Assembly (NCBI GenBank): GCA_023264635.1 | Contig: JAHFLT010000001.1 | Location: forward strand, 35,307 to 99,306 | Length of the DNA stretch: 64,000 nt | From: Candidatus Woesearchaeota archaeon | GTDB lineage: Archaea; Nanobdellota; Nanobdellia; Woesearchaeales; JAGVYF01 | Direction: 5' to 3' | Shown here: one piece after another, positions 3,755-63,887 of the stretch | How positions within the stretch are numbered: position 1 is the stretch's first letter | Layout: every line of letters begins with the position of its first letter | Program-made: the position numbers and the translations under genes | The notes under the pieces: model-generated | Seen by the model: only the letters and a program-made list of their open reading frames with translations | Databases searched by the model: none | Told to the model about the DNA's origin: nothing

Positions 3755-5140
3755 TTAGCATATCCTCCTTTTCAGCAGCTCCTTGACAGTGTCTGCTTTT
3801 GCTTTTCCTTTTGTCAAAGCCATGACTTTACCTATCAAGAAATTTAATGCCTTTTCTTCGCCAGCAAGATAATCCTTTACTGCTTCTGGATGTTCAGAGA
3901 CCACCTTTTGCGTAAGTTTACCTAACTCTTCTTCACTGCTTATAATGCCTAGTCCTTTTTGAGCTACGTATGCTCTCGGACTGAACGATTTCTCAATCAT
4001 CTGCTTGAGAAGCCCTTCTGCAGTCTGATCAGTAATTTCTTTTTTTACGACCATCTGCAGCAGCTCTGCAATATGTTTCTCATCAAACTCTACTTCCTGC
4101 AACGTTCGTTGTGTTACATTCATTATTTTCAGCAGCTCATGCCTGAGCCACTTTGCTGCGAGCAATGGGTCTACTGTCTTTGCAAGTTTTTCAAACAAAT
4201 CCGCAAGTGCGAGATCGCTTGCCAGGATTTTAGCATCCGTTGCTGATACTTTCATATTCTTGTATCGCTCAATCTTGATGTGCGGCTTCTCTGGAAGCAT
4301 CTTCTGGATGTTTTCCACAAGCGCATCAGTTATGTGAATTAATGGTAGATCTGGTTCCGGGATAAACATATAGTCAAGTGCAGTCTCTTTGGAGCGCATG
4401 AAGTGCGTCTTGCCATAGGTATCAGGAGGGCTTCTTGTGTGGGCAAAAACTTTTTCTCTCTGAGCTACTACCTCATGCTGCCTTTTTATTTCCCCGTCTA
4501 TTGCAAGCACGATAGTCTTAATTGAATTAACATTCTTGATCTCAACACGTGGGTGGTGCTCTGTGCTTACATTCACATCACATTTTATTCCCGCATTCTT
4601 ATTGACCGCTTTGAGATAAGATAATGTGGTCAGAAGGCTCTCCAGCCAATCTTTTACTTCTCCTGCACTTGTAAAATCAGGTTCAGTGACAATTTCAATC
4701 AGAGGATAGCCACTTCTGTTGTAATCCACAAGTCCTGTTTCAGGATCCCAACGTGCAGGATCCTCTTCCAAGTGACACTCCGTGATACCGACATCCAGAT
4801 ATTTCCCATGCTCACCTACTGGATGCGAGTACGTTCCCGAAATGGTGATCTGATATCCTTTGGGTAAATCAGGCCAGTCATAATGTTTTCGTTGAAAGAT
4901 AAGCTTTTTATTAATACTGCAGTCCAGCATTAATGCGCAAGTGACTACTTTTTCCACTGCTTCTTTGTTAGGCAACATGGGTTTTGAACCTGGCTGCCCT
5001 GTGCAGCGCGGGCAAACAGTTGTATTTGGTGCAGCATCTTGATCAACTGTGCATCGACAGAATAATTTCTGGTGAGTTTTGTGCATCGCCAGATAACCAT
5101 GAATCTCAAGCCCGATTCTTGCCATGACACTTTTCCCCAT
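3755..5140 (-). CDS. gatB: Glutamyl-tRNA(Gln)/Asp-tRNA(Asn) amidotransferase subunit B
   Basis: 461 aa. N-terminal MARIGLEIHGYL typical of GatB/GatE family. Start abuts stop of upstream gene at 5140. Confidence 0.9.
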   Translation of the reverse strand: MGKSVMARIGLEIHGYLAMHKTHQKLFCRCTVDQDAAPNTTVCPRCTGQPGSKPMLPNKEAVEKVVTCALMLDCSINKKLIFQRKHYDWPDLPKGYQITISGTYSHPVGEHGKYLDVGITECHLEEDPARWDPETGLVDYNRSGYPLIEIVTEPDFTSAGEVKDWLESLLTTLSYLKAVNKNAGIKCDVNVSTEHHPRVEIKNVNSIKTIVLAIDGEIKRQHEVVAQREKVFAHTRSPPDTYGKTHFMRSKETALDYMFIPEPDLPLIHITDALVENIQKMLPEKPHIKIERYKNMKVSATDAKILASDLALADLFEKLAKTVDPLLAAKWLRHELLKIMNVTQRTLQEVEFDEKHIAELLQMVVKKEITDQTAEGLLKQMIEKSFSPRAYVAQKGLGIISSEEELGKLTQKVVSEHPEAVKDYLAGEEKALNFLIGKVMALTKGKAKADTVKELLKRRIC

Positions 5141-7683: not shown

Positions 7684-9990
7684 ATGAACCGCGAAAAGTG
7701 GGAAGTTTCCTTAGAAGACTTAGTCTGGATAGCAGATCCAACAGAGTTCACATTTGCAAATACAGTTGAGATACATCCACCTGTTAATCCTATTGACATT
7801 GTCAAAGGCCAACATGATGCCAAACAGACGCTTCTGTCAGCAATAAAACTTCGCCAAAATGCAATCCTTATAGGGCCTGCTGGGTGCGGCAAATCACTGC
7901 TGGCAAAAACAGTGGCTGAACAATTCTCACTGGAAAATGCGAACAAGATAAAGCTCTATGACCAATGCCTCATCTATAATTTGGAGAATGAATTTGAACC
8001 GGATGTGATTAGCCTTCCGACGCCACTCGGAAAGCAATTTGCCGAAGACTTCAGGACATTCATAAAATATATTCGTGCAGGTGCCCACTACAGGCCTACT
8101 GGCCATGGAAATCCTCAGGATACGAAAATAACGTTCCGCACACATTCATTTTTTTCCACAACTGAATATTCAGGAACGCTAAAGCAACTTTTGGAAGGTG
8201 TGGCCAAGCAGAATGGGTTGACTATAGTGCCTGATGCTGATGTACTTTTCAAACATAGTATCAGGATGCTTGATGCGCCAGTGCTTACTGATGGAAAAGA
8301 TTACTTTACGTTGCGAATCTTGTGCCCTCATTATGAATTTGACGAACCTCGCAATGGAAAATCATTTATCCTCGACAATTTAGTGCAGACCTATAAATAT
8401 TATCCTAAAGTGCTTCGCTATTTTGGTGATATGGCTCGTGAAGTTCGTGAAACTGAAGAAATGAAAGGATTATTTGACATGGAGCAGCCATTTATAAAAA
8501 AAATGCGCGAAGAGAAATACATGATTAACGTTATTGTCAATAACGCTGAGACCGTTGGAGTCCCTGTGGAATATATTGAGAATCCGAGTATACAGAACAT
8601 TATCGGAGAAGCTGGCCATGATGCATATAATCTCCGCCCAATGCATATGCGTATCAAACCAGGCAAGCTCCATCGCGGTAATGGGGGTATCGTCATTATA
8701 GATGAGCTTATCACTGTCTTGCAGGATCAATACATGCGTAACTTTTTGCTTACTGTACTTAACGACAAGCAAGGCCGGATCGGGGGTGGCGCTGGCTTGA
8801 GTGGTGGAGGGACAAGCGCTGGCGTTGAGACAAAGCCTGTTGCAGCGGATTGCATCGTCATTGGATGCGCAAATGACGATGTATTCAAGTACATGACAGA
8901 CAAGATTGCCAGACGTTTCCAGCACAAGGTGAAATTCCATACAACTATGGACAACACATTGGAAAATAGGATGGGATACGCAGAATTTATTGCTTATGAA
9001 ATCAATAAATACAATAATGACTCCTCAAATCAAGTAAAGCTTTCTCATTGTACTCCTGAAGCAGTTGCTGCTGTTGTCGAGTGGGGCGTTCGCTTTGCCC
9101 AGAATGCTGCGCATGGCAAGAAAAAGCTCACTAATGTGCTTGATCCAGTGGCATTACTTGTGAAATCAGCAGCGATGAAGGCATCACAAGAGAATGCACC
9201 ACTTGTTGAGCGTATCCATGTCCAAGCTGCTCGCGAGGAGTTGCGGCGGTTGTCGACACAGATGCAGACAGACTATCTTACTTATATTAATGAGGGTCTC
9301 ATATCCATAGAGGTGGATGGTTTCCGAGAGCGTATAGTTAACGGGCTTGTTGTTATTAAAGATAACTATGGACTTGTTGCATATGGATTTCCTACACGAT
9401 TAATAGCTACAGCATCGCAAGGCAAAGGCGGATTTCTCAGCAGTGAAAAGGAGGCCGGGCTTTCAGGAAAAATTATGCTGAAAACGCATGAAATAATTAA
9501 GACTTACTTTAATGCAACCTATGGGAAAGCATTGGCAAAAGTAAATTTATCAGTCAGTTTCGCACAGAGCTATTCATCGATAGATGGCGATAGCGCATCG
9601 ATAGCGACTGTCATCGCACTTAAAAGTGCTCTTAGTGGCATGCCTGTAGATCAAGGACTGGCTGTTACAGGTTCGATGAATGAGCTGGGAGAAATCCAGC
9701 CAATAGGCGGCGTCAATGAGAAGATAGAGGGATTCTATGCGGTTTGTAAGCAAAAAGGATTCACCAGAAAGCAAGGTGTCATCATTCCCCCGAGCAATGT
9801 TCCGGATCTAATGTTAGCAAAAGATGTTATAGATGATGTCTGCGCTGGAAACTTCCATGTGTATTCTGTCAAACATCTGGATGAAGCAGTGGAGCTTATG
9901 TTTGCCAAGCCAGCACAGGACGTTGACAGATGCATACGGAAAAAGCTTGAGGAATACTGGAGGGAAGACAGTGTCACGGGTAAACGCTGA
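7684..9990 (+). CDS. Soluble LonB-like AAA+ serine protease with about 250-aa insertion between Walker A and Walker B
   Basis: Walker A GPAGCGKS, Walker B GGIVIIDE. C-terminal Lon protease domain DGDSASIA (Ser) and GGVNEKIEG (Lys). No hydrophobic transmembrane segment in the insert, unlike canonical archaeal LonB. RBS-like AGGAAG upstream. Confidence 0.8.
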   Translation: MNREKWEVSLEDLVWIADPTEFTFANTVEIHPPVNPIDIVKGQHDAKQTLLSAIKLRQNAILIGPAGCGKSLLAKTVAEQFSLENANKIKLYDQCLIYNLENEFEPDVISLPTPLGKQFAEDFRTFIKYIRAGAHYRPTGHGNPQDTKITFRTHSFFSTTEYSGTLKQLLEGVAKQNGLTIVPDADVLFKHSIRMLDAPVLTDGKDYFTLRILCPHYEFDEPRNGKSFILDNLVQTYKYYPKVLRYFGDMAREVRETEEMKGLFDMEQPFIKKMREEKYMINVIVNNAETVGVPVEYIENPSIQNIIGEAGHDAYNLRPMHMRIKPGKLHRGNGGIVIIDELITVLQDQYMRNFLLTVLNDKQGRIGGGAGLSGGGTSAGVETKPVAADCIVIGCANDDVFKYMTDKIARRFQHKVKFHTTMDNTLENRMGYAEFIAYEINKYNNDSSNQVKLSHCTPEAVAAVVEWGVRFAQNAAHGKKKLTNVLDPVALLVKSAAMKASQENAPLVERIHVQAAREELRRLSTQMQTDYLTYINEGLISIEVDGFRERIVNGLVVIKDNYGLVAYGFPTRLIATASQGKGGFLSSEKEAGLSGKIMLKTHEIIKTYFNATYGKALAKVNLSVSFAQSYSSIDGDSASIATVIALKSALSGMPVDQGLAVTGSMNELGEIQPIGGVNEKIEGFYAVCKQKGFTRKQGVIIPPSNVPDLMLAKDVIDDVCAGNFHVYSVKHLDEAVELMFAKPAQDVDRCIRKKLEEYWREDSVTGKR

Positions 9991-24104: not shown

Positions 24105-26561
24105 ATGATTCCTGTGAAGGTAATGGATTATAAGGTTCCGGTAGAAAAGTTACGTATAGAGGTCGACAAACAAGAATTCGGACTTAAAGGCCAGACGACC
24201 AGCGTACTACCAGTACCGAAAGGACTGGAAGTTGTGGTAGGTAATGAAGAAGCAATCAGCACAGTCCTCAGAGGATTAGAGGACAAAAGTCCGACAACAA
24301 ACATCATTATCACCGGAGATCCTGGCGTGGGAAAAAGCCTTTTGACGAATATACTTCTGGAAGATTATTGTAAAAAGCAGCCGAACGATCATCTGACAGA
24401 TAAAGTCGTGTTCTATAATTTCAAGCACGAGAAACAACCGATTATTGCGGAATTGCCGAAGGGGACTGCTTATCAGTTTGCAAAATCAGTAGATGATACG
24501 TTGTCGCAACTGGTAATTGAAGCAATGACTATTGGGCAGAATTACATGATAAAAAAGAACGTAAGCCAAGTCAAGTATAGGATTATGGAGAAGAAAGTTA
24601 TCGATGACCTTGAGAAGAAGTACAAAATTCCAAAGAAACCAATACTGGATAAAAATAATCAGCAGAGAGTAGACAAAAACGGTCAGCCACTCTCAGAGTA
24701 TGATCCAAAAACCCAACAGGATTGTGATAACCTTGTGCAAATGCTGCATGATTTGTCGATTGTACAATCCACCAACGATACTGCTTGCAAGAAAGAGTCA
24801 CGAACATTAACATCCCAAAAAAAGAAAGAGTTTGGCAGCTGTATGGGAAAAGCATTAAAAGAACTCCATACAGCATATGGACAGAACCTTCTCATTAAAG
24901 AGTACCTGGATGATTTCGTAATCAACGCAAAAGAGGATTTTGACCTATTTTTGGGGGAGGGACTAAGTAAAGATGCCCCACAAAATGATTACGGAATAGA
25001 AAAATACCGTGTCAATGTTGTCGTGGACCATACGCATACAATAGGCATTCCTTACGCAAAGATAGAGCGTCCTGATGAGCGAACATTACTCGGAGAAATA
25101 AAGGGAGACAACCTTAACGAGGAAAGCAAACCACCACAGTTCTGTGTGGATATAGGAAAAATGATAGAATGCGATGGAGGCATTGTTTTTCTTGATGAAA
25201 AATTCACAGGCATATTTCGGCATGGGCTGGGGCTTGAGCAGAGACTCCTGACTATTTTGGAAGAACGAAAGGCACGCGTGAGTGGAAACCAGAATTACTT
25301 ACTTCCAACACAGCAGATAGAGACTAGTGAAGTCAGCGCACAGACGAAGATTGTGGCATGCATGAACTTACCAGATTACTATATTTGCCAAGATTATTTT
25401 CCCCAGTTAATGGAGCGTTTTGCATACAAAGCGCATTTCCAGAGCAGGATGGAGAACAACGTAAAGCACAGAAAACAGGTTGTATCCTTTGTTGCCACCG
25501 AAATAAGGGCACACAACGAAAATGAAAAAATAAAGGTTCCACATTTTTCTGAAGATGGCTTAGCTGCACTGCTTGAGCATATGTCTCGTCAGGAGAATCA
25601 GCATTATTTGACAACACGACTGCGCACAATAAGACAGCTCCTTTTCTCTGCAGCAGAGCTTGCACGGCAAGAGAATAAGCCTGCTATTGAACGTCAGCAT
25701 GTGCTTGCTGCACGGGAGCTGCAAAACAAAGGATGCACATTGTATAAAATAGAGCAAGATATACTAGCAGGATTCGGCGTTGATGGGAGAGTACTACTGC
25801 TTACAACTGGTGAGAAAACCGGTCAAATAAACGGACTACTCTATTACAGCATCAACGCAGAAAACTATGCATTTGGCAGCTCGCAAAGGTACCGTTTTGT
25901 AATCAAACCAGGCTATTATGGCAGGGGATTGAAATTCACCGACATAGAGAAAGCATCTGACTTAACCGGACCAACTCATAACAAAGGAGTAGAACTGTTA
26001 AAATCATTCTACAACAACCTAACTAATGAGCTGCGTGAACGGAAGATGATTTCAGGTTTAGCACCTGGATTAGAGGTTGACATGTCAGTACCAGAAAGTT
26101 GGAGCGGGAGGGATGGACCTTCTGCGACAGCTGCACAAGCATATGCATTCTTATCTGAACTAACTGGAATCCCCATAAAGCAGGGAATTGCTGTTACTGG
26201 TGCAATGGGTCCTGATGGTGAAGTGACTCTTGTTGGAGGCTTAAATGAAAAGATAGAAGGCTGGTACAAGATTCTGGCAAAGAGAGGCCATCTTGGGAAA
26301 GAGGCTGGTGTAATGATTCCGGCTGCCAACATACTGGAGTGTAATCTTTCTGATGACTGTATCAAGGCAGTGAAGAAGGGGGAATTCTCAGTCTATTATC
26401 ACAAGGATATTAGAACTGGTGTTGAAGTAATACTGGGTAAGAGTTGGGATGACGTGCTACAGGGTATCAAGAATACGTTCGACAAGTGGGAGAAAATGCT
26501 GGAAGAAGATGAAGTGAAACGTGCTAAAAGGAAAAAGGAGATAAAAGCAGCATTACCGTAA
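24105..26561 (+). CDS. Second soluble LonB-like AAA+ serine protease paralog with about 300-aa insertion between Walker A and B
   Basis: Walker A GDPGVGKS, Walker B GGIVFLDE. Lon protease domain GRDGPSATAA and GGLNEKIEG. Insert is hydrophilic and unrelated in sequence to the first paralog insert. Confidence 0.75.
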   Translation: MIPVKVMDYKVPVEKLRIEVDKQEFGLKGQTTSVLPVPKGLEVVVGNEEAISTVLRGLEDKSPTTNIIITGDPGVGKSLLTNILLEDYCKKQPNDHLTDKVVFYNFKHEKQPIIAELPKGTAYQFAKSVDDTLSQLVIEAMTIGQNYMIKKNVSQVKYRIMEKKVIDDLEKKYKIPKKPILDKNNQQRVDKNGQPLSEYDPKTQQDCDNLVQMLHDLSIVQSTNDTACKKESRTLTSQKKKEFGSCMGKALKELHTAYGQNLLIKEYLDDFVINAKEDFDLFLGEGLSKDAPQNDYGIEKYRVNVVVDHTHTIGIPYAKIERPDERTLLGEIKGDNLNEESKPPQFCVDIGKMIECDGGIVFLDEKFTGIFRHGLGLEQRLLTILEERKARVSGNQNYLLPTQQIETSEVSAQTKIVACMNLPDYYICQDYFPQLMERFAYKAHFQSRMENNVKHRKQVVSFVATEIRAHNENEKIKVPHFSEDGLAALLEHMSRQENQHYLTTRLRTIRQLLFSAAELARQENKPAIERQHVLAARELQNKGCTLYKIEQDILAGFGVDGRVLLLTTGEKTGQINGLLYYSINAENYAFGSSQRYRFVIKPGYYGRGLKFTDIEKASDLTGPTHNKGVELLKSFYNNLTNELRERKMISGLAPGLEVDMSVPESWSGRDGPSATAAQAYAFLSELTGIPIKQGIAVTGAMGPDGEVTLVGGLNEKIEGWYKILAKRGHLGKEAGVMIPAANILECNLSDDCIKAVKKGEFSVYYHKDIRTGVEVILGKSWDDVLQGIKNTFDKWEKMLEEDEVKRAKRKKEIKAALP

Positions 26562-28526: not shown

Positions 28527-28631
28527 CGGGGTGGATGGGATTTGAACCCATGACAAACCGCGCATGGAAGGAAAGCTTCCACACTTCACGGGCTTCAGCC
28601 GTGTGCTCTCCCAGGCTGTAGCTACCACCCC
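28527..28631 (-). tRNA. tRNA-Phe (GAA) with about 30-nt intron-like insertion between anticodon arm and T arm
   Basis: Reverse strand folds as acceptor GGGGTGG/CCACCCC, D arm GCT..AGC, anticodon stem CACGG/CCGTG with loop CTGAAGC, and T arm ATGGG-TTCAAAT-CCCAT. About 35 nt separate the anticodon stem from the T stem instead of about 5. Confidence 0.65.
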
Positions 28632-38300: not shown

Positions 38301-38431
38301 GCAGGGGTAGCGAAGCCTGGTCAAACGCGCAGGACTCAGAGCACATCACCTGGCTGAGTGCGATACTTAAGACCAGGTGTGAGAGATCCTGTCTCTTAGT
38401 GGGTTCGAGGGTTCAAATCCCTTCCCCTGCA
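38301..38431 (+). tRNA. tRNA-Leu (CAG) with about 45-nt canonical-position intron
   Basis: Acceptor GCAGGGG/CCCCTGC. Anticodon stem CAGGA/TCCTG with loop CTCAGA then insertion after position 37. Long variable arm. T arm GAGGG-TTCAAAT-CCCTT. Discriminator A. No encoded CCA. Confidence 0.7.
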
Positions 38432-61196: not shown

Positions 61197-61589
61197 TTAG
61201 CTGCGTGTATAACAGGAACTCTTTTTTGTCATCTTATAATCCATAACAGCATTTATCAGAAGGACACCAGCTCCACCATATAACATGGGAGAATATTCAC
61301 CTATATACCGTGCACTAAAAACAGAAAACGATGCAAGCAACCCTACAAAGAGATATCTTTTCTTACCATGCTTTCGTGCATTGACATAAAGTCCAGCTAT
61401 ACCTATACCAAGTAAAAGTAGTGTGAGCCATTTTAGTAGTGTGAAATTGACAAGAAATCCCAATCCAATGGCAGAGAATAATGCGCCTACTGCTGGAACG
61501 CAGGCAGGACAGGCTACGCTAAAGAAAGACCCTAAACTGCTCCCTATTCCACCAACACCACTATATAAAAAAGTAAGCTTTTCTTTCAT
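61197..61589 (-). CDS. Four-transmembrane-helix membrane protein with intramembrane CPAC motif
   Basis: GVGGIGSSLGSFFSVACPACVPAVGALFSAIG. 130 aa. 4-bp overlap with upstream small gene. Confidence 0.45.
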   Translation of the reverse strand: MKEKLTFLYSGVGGIGSSLGSFFSVACPACVPAVGALFSAIGLGFLVNFTLLKWLTLLLLGIGIAGLYVNARKHGKKRYLFVGLLASFSVFSARYIGEYSPMLYGGAGVLLINAVMDYKMTKKSSCYTRS

Positions 61590-61777
61590 TGGTTGTTACC
61601 TCCATGTGCTGTCGGACATTTTCTGTCTCCATAATCGCAAAAGACACAACAACTCTTTTGTGCTGCAATGATTTTTTTGCATCCTTCGCAACGATAAAAT
61701 GCCTGACAACTTGATGTTGGTGTCTCCATTTTCTGTTTATGCCCACATTCAGGACAGGTTATTTTACCAGTAGTCAT
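61586..61777 (-). CDS. Small Cys-rich metal-binding protein (multiple CxxC)
   Basis: 63 aa with CPECG, CEGC and CCVFC...C clusters. Confidence 0.4.
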   Translation of the reverse strand: MTTGKITCPECGHKQKMETPTSSCQAFYRCEGCKKIIAAQKSCCVFCDYGDRKCPTAHGGNNQ

Positions 61778-61795
61778 ACTACGTCTCCTTGATTT

Positions 61796-62158
61796 TTACT
61801 CATATTGCTCAGCCCATTGACTTAGTGGGATAATCACACTATAGAGTGTGCTTCCTTTTTCGGTGAGAGAGTATTCGACACGCGGTGGTCTTTCCATGAA
61901 AACTGTCCGTTTGATGAGATACTGCTTTCCAAGTTCATTTAACCTTTCGGATAACATCTTAGGACTAATGCCTTCAACTTTGTCCAAAATGCCATTAAAA
62001 CGGAGTGTAGTAAAGTTACCAATCGTTACTAAAATTGATAATGTCCATTTTTTGCTAAGGAATGCTGTTGCGCATTCCAATGGGCGTGGACAATAACCTT
62101 TCCCTTTCATCTTGCAGCCTTGCGGCAAAACCTCTTTTGTTGTTGTTTTACTTACCAT
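61796..62158 (-). CDS. HxlR-family winged-helix transcriptional regulator
   Basis: CPRPLECATAFLSKKWTLSIL...PPRVEYSLTEKG is the HxlR signature layout. Confidence 0.7.
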   Translation of the reverse strand: MVSKTTTKEVLPQGCKMKGKGYCPRPLECATAFLSKKWTLSILVTIGNFTTLRFNGILDKVEGISPKMLSERLNELGKQYLIKRTVFMERPPRVEYSLTEKGSTLYSVIIPLSQWAEQYE

Positions 62159-62453
62159 TTTGAAACTGTCTCCTTTAAATAATATGGATAATTTACTAAG
62201 TATATATTAGTAAGTATTAAAATCTTTCGGAGGTGAAAAATATGCCAAAAACAAAATCACGTTGTTGTGCAAGTGGAGTCTGTCCCTGTTGTCCATGCTG
62301 CATTTGCACGAAGAAATTAAGTCCACAAGCACGACAACTACTCAGTGAGGATAGAGAATAGAGGAAAGAAAATTTTGGTTCCTCCGCTATAATTTCTTTT
62401 TTTCTCTTCTCTTAAAGAAAAACTTTAATAAGACGGCATCCCTCTTTTCTCTA

Positions 62454-62819
62454 ATGAACTTGCAAGATCTGGTGAAAATCACAGGGTTACCTGTTTTTAT
62501 TGCATCTTTATGTTGCTTAAGTTCAGTTATTTTAGTTTTATTTGGGTTAAGCACAGTGAGTTTTGCAGCGTCGCTTGCAGATACATTTTATGGTTCTTAC
62601 AGATGGCTCTTTCGCAGCGTAGGGCTGCTTTTGCTGGGTTTGAGTTTAGTAGTATACTTCCGTCAAAAGGGGATTTGTACACTAGACGAGGCGAAAAGAA
62701 GAAAAAAGATGATTATTAACACGATAATCATTAGTTTGATTACTGCTCTTGTTGGGTATCTGTTTTTTCTTTACGTTGTTGTGGAATATCTTGGTATCAT
62801 TTTTCATATCTGGGGGTGA
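62454..62819 (+). CDS. MerT-like small membrane protein (vicinal Cys pair in first transmembrane helix)
   Basis: 121 aa. FIASLCCLSSVILVLFGL resembles the MerT ILASACCLGPLVLIALG. Cytoplasmic-loop Cys (GICT). Confidence 0.4.
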   Translation: MNLQDLVKITGLPVFIASLCCLSSVILVLFGLSTVSFAASLADTFYGSYRWLFRSVGLLLLGLSLVVYFRQKGICTLDEAKRRKKMIINTIIISLITALVGYLFFLYVVVEYLGIIFHIWG

Positions 62820-62823
62820 ATAC

Positions 62824-63887
62824 CTATCTGGTGGTGAAGATCACCTTCTTTGTGTACTCCCATGCAAGCTTCCACTTGGGCAATAAACCAACGATTTTGA
62901 ATAGATAGATTGTTCTCTTCAACCACCATGCAAAGAACCCGAAAAAAGTAAAACCATTTATTTCTCCCACACCACAGAATTGACCAGCAGAAAGCAAAAA
63001 TCCTCTGCACCGGAATGAAAAAGGCACAAGTGGTTTTCTCTCTACTACTCTGATAATATTTATTGCTACCACTCTTGCCTGTTGTTCAGCAGTTTGTGCA
63101 ATTTTTGGTGCAAAAGTTGCAGCACAATCTCCTAAGGAAAAGACATTTTCTGCAGTTTTTACACGTAAATTTTTGTCAACAAGAACCTCGCCACTGATGG
63201 TGGTGATAGACATATCTGTAGGTGGTAACTCTTGTTTTACTCCTGTACACCAAATAAGGTAATCCACTCCTTTGGGTGGCGTATCCCAATGGGCATTGAC
63301 TATTATGTTGATTTTTCTTTTTTTCAAACAGTTTTCTACACTGTGTCGAAAGTTGGAAGAGGCTGTTGGCAAAATTGTGGGAGCCCCTTGGTAAATGGTT
63401 ACCTGGAACTTATTGGCTAATTCAGCTGCTAATTCCACTCCAGTTGCACCACCACCTAAGATGCCGATATGTGCAGAATGCGGAAGTACAGCTAATTCTT
63501 TTCTGATGTGTAATGCATCAGCAAGTGATTTCAATGTCACTTTTCCCGTTTCCCGCGCTTTTGCACCTAATGCAATAACTAAAATATCATAAGATATTGT
63601 CTGATTTCGCAGAGTAACTGTTTTGTTTTTTAGAGAGATATTACCTATTGACTCCTGAATAAATACATAATTTGTGAGAGAGAGAGCAAGGTGTGTAATC
63701 CTACTTGTATTACTTCTGGATCAATAATGCCCACAGCAACTTCATGAAGCAATGGAGAAAAAATAAAGGTTGGCTGCTTAGCAATAAGCGTTAGTGTATG
63801 TTCGGGGTGTCTTTTTAGATATGGTTGTAATCTTTTTGCTGTGTACACTGCTCCAAAACCGCCACCGAGTATAACAACATGGACCAT
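62824..63887 (-). pseudogene. Type II NADH dehydrogenase / SQR-family flavoprotein, interrupted by a frameshift at a (GA)n run
   Basis: N-terminal ORF 63645..63887 has VVILGGGFGAV FAD motif and FIFSPLL. A second frame continues NYVFIQESIG...YDILVIALGA...ILGGGATGVELA...GDCA to 62824. Frames change at GAGAGAGAGAG (about 63676-63686). Confidence 0.55.

Follow-up and report, generated by a model that had tools for sequence, protein, structure and literature searches.

A cluster of cysteine-rich genes occupies positions 61,197–62,819 of a 64,000-nucleotide stretch of contig JAHFLT010000001.1 (the window) from a Candidatus Woesearchaeota archaeon. Its minus strand encodes an HxlR-family regulator, a 63-amino-acid (aa) protein of the GDCCVxC family (hereafter GDCC) and a MerC-family membrane protein, and its plus strand encodes a 39-aa cysteine-rich peptide and a membrane protein that resembles MerT (Table 1). 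The four open reading frames (ORFs) on which the original prediction was built all lie where it placed them, but its gene list overlooked the fifth gene, which encodes the peptide, and an operator-like palindrome. The closest relatives of the cluster genes occur in Woesearchaeota and other DPANN metagenome-assembled genomes, where the gene set recurs. Import of a soft metal with capture in the cytoplasm is the role that we tentatively favour for it.

Table 1. Features of the cluster and its flank, in window coordinates
Feature	Position	Strand	Remarks
MerC-family membrane protein	61197-61589	-	130 aa, CPAC; Pfam PF03203 match
GDCCVxC-family small protein	61586-61777	-	63 aa, 9 Cys; NCBIfam NF041374 match
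HxlR-family winged-helix regulator	61796-62158	-	120 aa; Pfam PF01638 match
Divergent control region	62159-62241	no strand	two boxes, inverted repeat, ribosome-binding site
Cys-rich peptide gene	62242-62361	+	39 aa, 8 Cys; previously unannotated
Hairpin and T-rich run	62361-62405	+	3′ of peptide gene; inverted repeat
MerT-family-like membrane protein	62454-62819	+	121 aa, 3 helices
Frameshifted NDH-2-like FAD/NAD(P) flavoprotein (Pyr_redox_2)	62824-63887	-	neighbour; module membership putative at most

Genes and control elements of the cluster

The stop codon of the regulator gene lies 18 nt from the start of the GDCC gene, AGGAG stands ~12 nt 5′ of the GDCC ATG, and the MerC-like ATG overlaps the GDCC TGA by 4 bp (ATGA), as had been reported for the small cysteine-rich gene and the CPAC membrane protein gene. 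With this spacing, the three minus-strand genes look like a single operon. Between the HxlR and peptide genes, a TTTAAATA box (62175-62182) and a TATTAAAA box (62216-62223) stand on either side of TTACTAA-N7-TTAGTAA (62193-62213), an inverted repeat without mismatches; the peptide gene is preceded by a GGAGGTGA ribosome-binding site. The spacer is 68-84 nt long in all six loci with this arrangement (the window, L011, L013, L018, L034 and L042) and keeps its layout throughout: a TTTAAATA box, then TTACT/AGTAA half-sites in inverted repeat, then a second, TATTTAAA-like box. We infer from this layout that the spacer holds two archaeal promoters with a shared, putative HxlR operator. A bacterial promoter scan of this archaeal window was uninformative.

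The 295-nt gap between the HxlR and MerT-like genes contains the peptide ORF, MPKTKSRCCASGVCPCCPCCICTKKLSPQARQLLSEDRE, to which ORF listing assigns a GTG start at 62233. Cys makes up 21% of the peptide, which carries the motif CPCCPCCIC, is rich in CC and CxC and has zero aromatic residues; it thus shows the sequence characteristics of metallothioneins (short, >15% Cys, CxC/CC clusters, aromatic-free). Orthologs in L011 (5323-5445), L013 (5425-5556, minus strand), L018 (417-590), L034 (5351-5473) and L042 (5961-6089) give the family motif CC.GG[VI]CP.C.CCIC[IV]CTKKL.P.A[KR].LL, and in these loci, as in the window, the peptide gene is always divergent from an HxlR ortholog. A six-frame regular-expression search of 130 loci and the window found no copy outside the HxlR-linked loci. 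Synonymous codon differences outnumber non-synonymous ones (181 versus 107 in 15 pairwise comparisons over 27 codons) and conserved Cys positions flip between TGT and TGC, which indicates that the ORF encodes a protein and is under purifying selection. It usually escapes gene calling: two of the six orthologs are called in a collection of 15 billion proteins and none is named. Pfam and NCBIfam gave zero matches at E≤10. Downstream of the peptide gene, a GAGGAAAGAAAA/TTTTGGTTCCTC stem followed by a T-rich run may act as a terminator, and the MerT-like gene has a TTTAATAA box of its own (62424-62431), ~23 nt 5′ of its ATG, so that this gene may form a separate transcription unit. In L034, HxlR is followed directly by the MerT-like gene in one operon.

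At 67.8 bits (cut-off 40), the GDCC protein belongs to NCBIfam NF041374, ‘GDCCVxC domain-containing (seleno)protein’, a family that is already curated with its function uncharacterised; a Pfam scan assigned it to no family, with no YHS/TRASH match at E≤1. It has nine Cys (C8, C11, C24, C30, C33, C43, C44, C47 and C54), not the eight originally counted. Among 44 close homologs with 59-76% identity, all nine Cys and the CCVFCDYGD segment are invariant (n=22 for the nine Cys). An exhaustive profile search recovered 1873 representative clusters, 428 of them at E≤1e-10, and each of the nine Cys is kept in >90% of the best 150. The motifs of the small protein are therefore conserved in its orthologs, where a lack of conservation had been named as grounds for abandoning the original idea. 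The broad family consensus is TCPxCGH..MP...C..FY.C..C...L.P..GDCCVFCSYGD..CP, in which GDCCVFC takes the place of the window KSCCVFC. Only the N-terminal half of the profile aligns with the TFIIS zinc ribbon 1qyp (E=4e-4), and the layout is that of an N-terminal zinc ribbon (C8/C11/C30/C33) followed by a CCVFC...C cluster. Judging from this alignment, C8, C11, C30 and C33 probably hold structural zinc, which leaves C24, C43, C44, C47 and C54 as a second site. The AlphaFold2 (AF2) model of the protein is fairly confident (predicted local distance difference test score, pLDDT, 81.7) and had no significant fold match in the PDB. Haft and Gwadz 2022 do not mention the GDCCVxC family.

The regulator matches Pfam PF01638 at 81.6 bits (cut-off 20.8). 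Its N-terminal motif C15-x7-C23-P, which reads CKMKGKGYCPRPLE, has both C15 and C23-P conserved in seven of eight module-linked orthologs. HxlR orthologs with 50-77% identity adjoin GDCC, MerC or MerT-like genes in L001, L011, L013, L018, L034 and L042.

Both membrane proteins match Mer families rather than unrelated ones, MerC above and MerT below the Pfam threshold, and their Cys motifs are conserved in relatives. Together with the invariant Cys of the small protein, this conservation goes far beyond chance. The CPAC protein covers positions 6-107 of the 108 in Pfam MerC PF03203 at 43 bits (cut-off 27.6) and scores 32.8 bits against NF033784 (cut-off 140) and 29.3 bits against NF010318 (cut-off 170), the NCBIfam MerC equivalogs. 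By these profile scores it is a MerC-family member and not an equivalog of the organomercurial transporter; it did not match the DsbD/CcdA or YeeE families that had been considered for it. Hydropathy gives four hydrophobic segments, with C27-P-A-C30 inside the first. A C-terminal Cys pair is absent (C126 only), whereas relatives end in CC, CxxC or CTTCC. Database relatives are few; in all of them the first helix retains CPAC (or CPxC) and the C-terminal tail has at least one Cys, and CPACVP is conserved in P0046, P0047, L013, L018 and L001. The DsbD_TM models PF02683 and PF13386 matched neither membrane protein at E≤1, and assignments of module proteins to TRASH/YHS, DsbD/CcdA or YeeE/YedE were set aside, as Pfam gave no matches.

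The 121-aa protein contains ASLCCLSSVILVL, and its N-terminal part reads ...FIASLCCLSSVILVL. It spans the full length of Pfam MerT PF02411 at a sub-threshold 22.1 bits (E=1.6e-4, cut-off 32.9) and scores ~24 bits against NCBIfam MerT models with cut-offs of 130-150. Many relatives at 60-68% identity have a precomputed PF02411 match and, with the Pfam E-value, they bear out the proposed kinship with MerT. A homolog search yielded at least 573 clusters with 58-76% identity, mostly from the Candidate Phyla Radiation (CPR)/Patescibacteria. C20, C21 and C75 are invariant in 44 sequences. C20-C21 is predicted to lie in helix 1 and C75 in a K/R-rich cytoplasmic loop; C75 is the single invariant loop Cys of the window clade, in which the second Cys pair is absent. 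The other archaeal MerT-like type (L003, L006 and L029) has a CC in the cytoplasmic loop. The AF2 model has long helices at low confidence (pLDDT 66). On average, loop 2 has 6.6 K+R and the C-terminus 0.2. This charge distribution supports a predicted N-in, C-out topology with cytoplasmic C75, in which an Msr domain fused to the C-terminus would be extracytoplasmic.

Recurrence of the gene set and its partners

Six loci carry the peptide beside HxlR. With // marking the divergent junction, their gene orders are MerC<GDCC<HxlR//peptide>(MerT-like) in the window, MerC<GDCC<HxlR//peptide in L013, where the MerT-like gene is absent, HxlR//peptide>GDCC>MerC in L018, HxlR//peptide>MerC in L042, HxlR//peptide>168-aa CxxC protein>GDCC in L011 and MerT-like<HxlR//peptide>162-aa CxxC protein>GDCC in L034. 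HxlR, GDCC and MerC also occur together in L001, as they do in L013 and L018. Shuffled gene orders with constant membership suggest a functional module, and the search for a conserved neighbourhood in other archaea that was recommended at the outset thus recovered the HxlR-linked set.

A genome scan for GDCC genes gave 40 loci, 37 of them archaeal and mostly DPANN. An ArsR/SmtB regulator lies directly upstream of GDCC in 14 of the 40, a YruB-type glutaredoxin-like gene occurs in ~17, a MerT-like protein in ~9 and a MerC-family protein in 4. HMA/MerP-like proteins and P1B-ATPases are found in L003, L006, L014, L029 and L032, with the order ArsR-(Grx)-GDCC-MerT-like-HMA in L003, L006 and L029, and thioredoxin reductase (TrxR) is found in L021, L030 and L031. 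In the archaeal locus L016 the order is ArsR-GDCC-MerA, and the gene directly after GDCC encodes a true MerA (538 bits against TIGR02053, cut-off 454). Five of the 40 loci carry an unknown four-helix membrane family of ~160 aa beside GDCC, with an intramembrane CxxC (CPAC/CPVC/CLSC) and a C-terminal Cys pair (L007 4245-4724, L011 5458-5964, L012 6790-7266, L032 1040-1549 and L034 5495-5983). This family has zero Pfam matches, and its assignment to MerC was rejected because its local profile match covers the MerC CxxC helix only (hhalign probability 83%).

Fusions join MerC and GDCC in single proteins (P0131, P0132 and P0071). P0131 reaches 163.6 bits with the MerC equivalog model (cut-off 170), retains the C-terminal RRCADGSC pair and continues into a GDCCVxC domain that scores 96.5 bits. 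Other fusion partners of GDCC are an ArsM-like methyltransferase (P0078), VKOR (P0080) and a PAS-GGDEF diguanylate cyclase (P0184).

In bacteria, tblastn detected the GDCC domain in 352 PLSDB plasmid records from Pseudomonas, Klebsiella, Aeromonas and others, where NCBI annotates the genes by family name only. Many of these records are accounted for by Tn5563-like elements, which carry merP-GDCC-Tn3 transposase and occur on IncP-6 KPC plasmids. Other arrangements are merR//merT-merP-GDCC in Methylobacter, merF-GDCC in Agrobacterium, MerTP-GDCC-CadD in Hymenobacter, CadR-x-GDCC beside a heavy-metal P-type ATPase in Thauera, a small ‘mercuric reductase’ fragment followed by GDCC beside copper/RND genes in Sphingobium, and DUF3179//GDCC-DUF4395-thioredoxin protein in Thiothrix. 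These recurring plasmid and bacterial contexts suggest that a Mer-type importer with GDCC and without MerA is a recurrent natural design. The Tn5563 locus has been described as a partial or defective mer operon, with its GDCC gene undiscussed (PMC4133298, PMC4785139). GDCC genes that come right after merP in L131 (4977-5189; Enterobacter plasmid pWW19C-KPC2) and L135 (3477-3692; Methylobacter) end with a GCCS/GCCG vicinal Cys pair, and merT of L131 is truncated by IS4321.

The MerT-like clade keeps different company. A metagenome scan gave 80 loci, of which 69 were analysable. In 25 of these, MsrA, usually as an MsrA-MsrB fusion, is directly adjacent or fused to the MerT-like gene. Other direct neighbours are CcdA (6 loci), DUF3179 (5 loci) and a TlpA-like redoxin (4 loci); TrxR is nearby in 5, and none of the 69 has merP or merR adjoining. 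These associations suggest a thiol-redox role for the MerT-like gene. By Pfam, L051 (4001-5266) combines MerT-like, PMSR and SelR domains in one 421-aa protein, and stand-alone MsrAB neighbours have N-terminal membrane anchors. CcdA and MerT-like genes are both present in L073, L094 and L105, and in L076, from a CPR bacterium, MsrA, MerT-like and GDCC genes all lie within 2 kb. The MerT-like/Msr loci, mostly of CPR bacteria, include L104, L052, L055, L056 and L060. DUF3179 adjoins MerT-like genes in L008 and L048 and GDCC in Thiothrix. Pfam finds it fused to a TlpA-like Redoxin (L118 48-1454) and to a DsbD_2/CcdA domain (L128 2388-3992); further DUF3179 loci are L137 (2420-3349), L048 (6878-7849) and L008 (about 4288-4539). 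Together, the fusions and neighbours tie this uncharacterised domain to an extracytoplasmic thiol network.

A flavoprotein gene converges on the MerT-like gene in L048, from a relative of the window genome. There, the MerT-like gene is 76% identical to the window copy, the flavoprotein is intact (375 aa) and the HxlR-GDCC-MerC operon is absent, so that the intact flavoprotein ortholog keeps synteny with the MerT-like gene only. The same DoxX/MauE-family and HFX_2341_N genes follow the flavoprotein past the window end and in L048 (5686-6725). The window gene had been described as a broken flavoprotein of the disulfide reductase family. The break is real: the gene is in two pieces in different frames (63645-63887, 80 aa, and 62824-63540, 238 aa), and comparison with the intact L036 ortholog shows one frameshift, located between 63729 and 63672 and next to the (CT) dinucleotide run CTCTCTCTC. 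The MerA-type assignment does not hold, as the N-terminus, GGGFGAVYTAKRL..., is without the CxxxxC of MerA-type disulfide reductases and the protein reaches only 30.5 of the 454 bits that the MerA model requires. On these matches it is a frameshifted NDH-2-like gene. A selenoprotein reading with an in-frame UGA, suggested by weak matches to ‘Nterm_to_SelD’ and selenoprotein-type SQR models, was rejected because the halves lie in different frames with the frameshift beside the (CT) run. An identical frameshift occurs in a second assembly (L041), whose DNA is 100% identical over 4200 nt, so that both assemblies probably derive from the same population; a sequencing or assembly artefact is neither shown nor excluded.

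Elsewhere in the window, LonB and a dimeric GlyRS are encoded; with two tRNA genes that presumably carry introns and the DPANN relatives of the cluster genes, they mark the window as archaeal. Two paralogous LonB-like proteins (7684-9990, plus strand, 768 aa; 24105-26561, plus strand, 818 aa) both score well under the LonB equivalog cut-off. Rfam detected two tRNA genes, at 28527-28631 (minus strand) and 38301-38431 (plus strand), whereas ARAGORN reported zero tRNAs in the window; spanning 105 and 131 nt, they presumably contain introns.

Proposed soft-metal capture and competing explanations

Soft-metal import with cytoplasmic capture is the role we put forward for the HxlR-GDCC-MerC operon and the peptide, with a confidence that stops short of even. 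We prefer it because, in bacteria and archaea, the partners of MerC and GDCC are metal genes under metal-sensing regulators, and because the near-canonical MerC P0131 carries GDCC as a cytoplasmic tail. The substrate and the direction of flow are our inference. An HxlR dimer on TTACTAA-N7-TTAGTAA would repress its own operon and the opposing peptide gene, and modification of C15/C23 by a soft, thiol-reactive metal such as Hg(II), Cd(II) or Cu(I) would free the repressor from DNA. The accepted model for MerC and MerT is ligand exchange on an intramembrane Cys pair; by analogy, the MerC-family protein would carry metal through the membrane by exchange on CPAC, and the MerT-like protein may do so too. 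Metal would be handed to cytoplasmic GDCC, with the invariant CC-x2-C...C cluster as the likely acceptor site; gene fusion and synteny establish GDCC as a partner of the importer, and the transfer of metal between them is putative. The metallothionein-like peptide would serve as a metal sink or buffer. With no MerA, the module would import and sequester metal, or pass it on elsewhere, rather than reduce it. The original prediction proposed a thiol-based unit for metal or reactive sulphur: its thiol basis stands and most parts favour a soft metal, but the MerT-like clade, which elsewhere accompanies MsrAB, CcdA and thioredoxin-like genes, complicates this picture.

Several observations weigh against soft-metal capture. 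The 64-kb window has no MerR, MerP, MerA, ArsR or heavy-metal efflux gene, so the import of a toxic metal with no reductase at hand needs explanation; tblastn of the true MerA from L016 against the window also gave no match at E≤0.01. The statement that this is not a canonical mer operon, for want of MerR, MerP and MerA, is thereby upheld. The MerC-like protein scores far under the NCBIfam equivalog cut-offs and has only one C-terminal Cys, and the neighbours of the window MerT-like clade are genes for Msr, CcdA and redoxins instead of mer genes. The NCBIfam matches of the regulator are only to the redox factors RrpA and RrpB, and they are weak. HxlR-family regulators are electrophile and oxidant sensors (YodB, HypR and RrpA/B types), and we know of none that senses metals. 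A redox role fits equally well where GDCC lies beside YruB glutaredoxins, thioredoxin reductases and the Thiothrix DUF3179/thioredoxin cluster. A literature search on the GDCCVxC motif found nothing, including no measured metal binding for any GDCC protein.

A thiol-disulfide relay is the chief rival; we regard it as possible and less probable than metal capture. Reductant from thioredoxin or glutaredoxin would pass through GDCC to membrane-protein Cys and on to MsrAB or surface thioredoxins, HxlR would sense oxidative or electrophile stress, as its redox-sensing relatives do, and the peptide would act as a ribosomally made thiol buffer. The relay draws on the 25 of 69 loci with MsrA/MsrB, on their CcdA, TlpA-like redoxin, DUF3179 and TrxR neighbours, on the L051 MerT-like-MsrA-MsrB fusion, whose predicted outside C-terminus would make Msr extracellular, and on the membrane-anchored MsrAB proteins. 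DUF3179, fused to Redoxin and DsbD_2 and adjoining GDCC in Thiothrix and MerT-like genes in L008 and L048, speaks for it, as do the 2-kb grouping in L076, the neighbours YruB and TrxR and the VKOR fusion P0080 of GDCC, and the NCBIfam label ‘(seleno)protein’, selenocysteine being typical of redox sites. A precedent is the CcdA-Etrx-MsrAB pathway of extracytoplasmic repair in S. pneumoniae, S. gordonii and F. nucleatum (PMC3914529, PMC7034828, PMC9239216). However, no Msr, CcdA or TlpA gene lies beside the module in the window or in the DPANN loci, and the window as a whole has no Msr, CcdA, TlpA, DUF3179, Grx, TrxR, ArsR, HMA or MerA gene. The partners of MerC and GDCC elsewhere are overwhelmingly mer/cad genes under MerR, CadR and ArsR, true MerA included; the MerT-like protein has only three conserved Cys; and nothing was found in the literature that links MerT to Msr. 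To our knowledge, no MerT or MerC protein carries out disulfide exchange. A related proposal, on which we place similarly guarded and limited weight, is that the CPR/DPANN MerT-like clade is not a mercury transporter but a three-helix, three-Cys membrane partner of extracytoplasmic Msr, possibly a conduit for reductant, and that the CPCCPCCIC peptide is a ribosomal thiol buffer or metallothionein, which with GDCC would stand in for low-molecular-weight thiols where the organism cannot make them. Cys-pair exchange underlies both the metal and the redox reading, which brings them close in chemistry, and different genes in the cluster may serve different ones.

Acquisition and buffering of Zn(II) or Cu(I) as an essential thiophilic metal in a cell poor in transporters, with MerC/MerT importers, GDCC as zinc chaperone and the peptide as store, seems unlikely to us. 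In its favour, GDCC has a classical zinc ribbon as its N-terminal half, the lack of a reductase or efflux pump fits a wanted metal better than a poison, and some GDCC neighbours are copper-binding/HMA proteins and P1B-ATPases; but regulators or transporters of zinc- or copper-specific families are absent, and bacterial GDCC operons are headed by MerR regulators of the Hg(II) or Cd(II) type. Vicinal CC motifs are typical of Hg(II)-handling proteins (MerT, MerF and the MerA C-terminus), which also counts against an essential metal. It is very improbable that the genes are chance neighbours whose Cys motifs are structural zinc sites without a shared function. The apparent own promoter of the MerT-like gene, the terminator-like element upstream of it and its presence in L048 without the operon would agree with chance. 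Yet six independent loci share HxlR, the peptide, GDCC and a Cys-motif membrane protein, in several gene orders; the 4-bp overlap gives translational coupling, MerC-GDCC fusions exist and the MerT-like gene directly follows HxlR in L034. These synteny and fusion data make a chance neighbourhood unlikely.

Relation to known systems and wider meaning

The MerC, MerT, HxlR and GDCCVxC families are already catalogued, and the nearest described systems include partial mer loci (merR-merT-merP-GDCCVxC; Tn5563 and relatives and the Methylobacter plasmid). As in the module, these have a Cys-pair importer followed by GDCC with the same nine-Cys pattern in a cluster without MerA. They differ in their regulator and importer (MerR with MerT and MerP, against HxlR with a MerC-like protein), and the module adds a Cys-rich peptide gene and an archaeal host. 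Canonical mer operons (Tn21/Tn501: merR-merT-merP-(merC)-merA-merD) share intramembrane Cys pairs (CC in MerT, CxxC in MerC) with the module. Stepwise thiol ligand exchange with cytoplasmic Cys-rich acceptors is their logic, which we propose for the module as well. Canonical operons have MerA, MerP and MerR, all of which the window lacks. Canonical MerT has two loop Cys where the window MerT-like protein has one, the window MerC-like protein has one C-terminal Cys, and both fall far under the NCBIfam equivalog cut-offs of the canonical proteins.

Among archaeal mercury loci, Sulfolobus merRAHI encodes MerH, a TRASH-domain metallochaperone; this small cytoplasmic protein contains Cys and has been proposed to traffic Hg(II), as GDCC would here. 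The Sulfolobus locus has MerA, which the module does not, and GDCC shows no YHS/TRASH match at E≤1. In relation to the CcdA/DsbD-Etrx/TlpA-MsrAB pathways, the MerT-like clade occupies the usual place of CcdA beside membrane-anchored MsrAB, TlpA-like redoxins and TrxR. CcdA/DsbD has six helices and two Cys, whereas the MerT-like protein has three helices and three Cys without a Pfam DsbD_TM/CcdA match, and no Msr gene lies near the window copy. Like the bacterial metallothioneins SmtA/BmtA and MymT, the 39-aa peptide is short, Cys-rich, aromatic-free and has CC/CxC. It differs from them in resembling no Pfam or NCBIfam family, in its conserved basic amphipathic tail TKKLxPxAKxLL and in its regulator, which is of the HxlR and not the SmtB or CsoR type. 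We found no description in the literature of an HxlR-headed archaeal importer-GDCC unit, of the Cys-rich peptide family or of the 160-aa CxxC membrane family.

GDCCVxC proteins are widespread, as their representative clusters and plasmid records attest, clinical IncP-6 KPC plasmids among them, and their genes lie inside loci that are termed ‘defective’ mer operons in the literature. The combination of an importer with GDCC and without MerA recurs, now in archaea under another regulator, which suggests that such loci are functional units. If they are, this would bear on how mercury and other soft metals are taken up, held and passed on in groundwater and sediments, and on what ‘defective’ mer loci contribute to the plasmids that carry them. 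With the archaeal variant, found in small-genome symbionts, come a new peptide family and a putative pair of regulator and operator. If the link between the MerT-like clade and MsrAB is functional, a family whose NCBI label is ‘mercuric transporter MerT family protein’ would be reassigned, and a gap would be filled in how CPR bacteria power the repair of their surface proteins.

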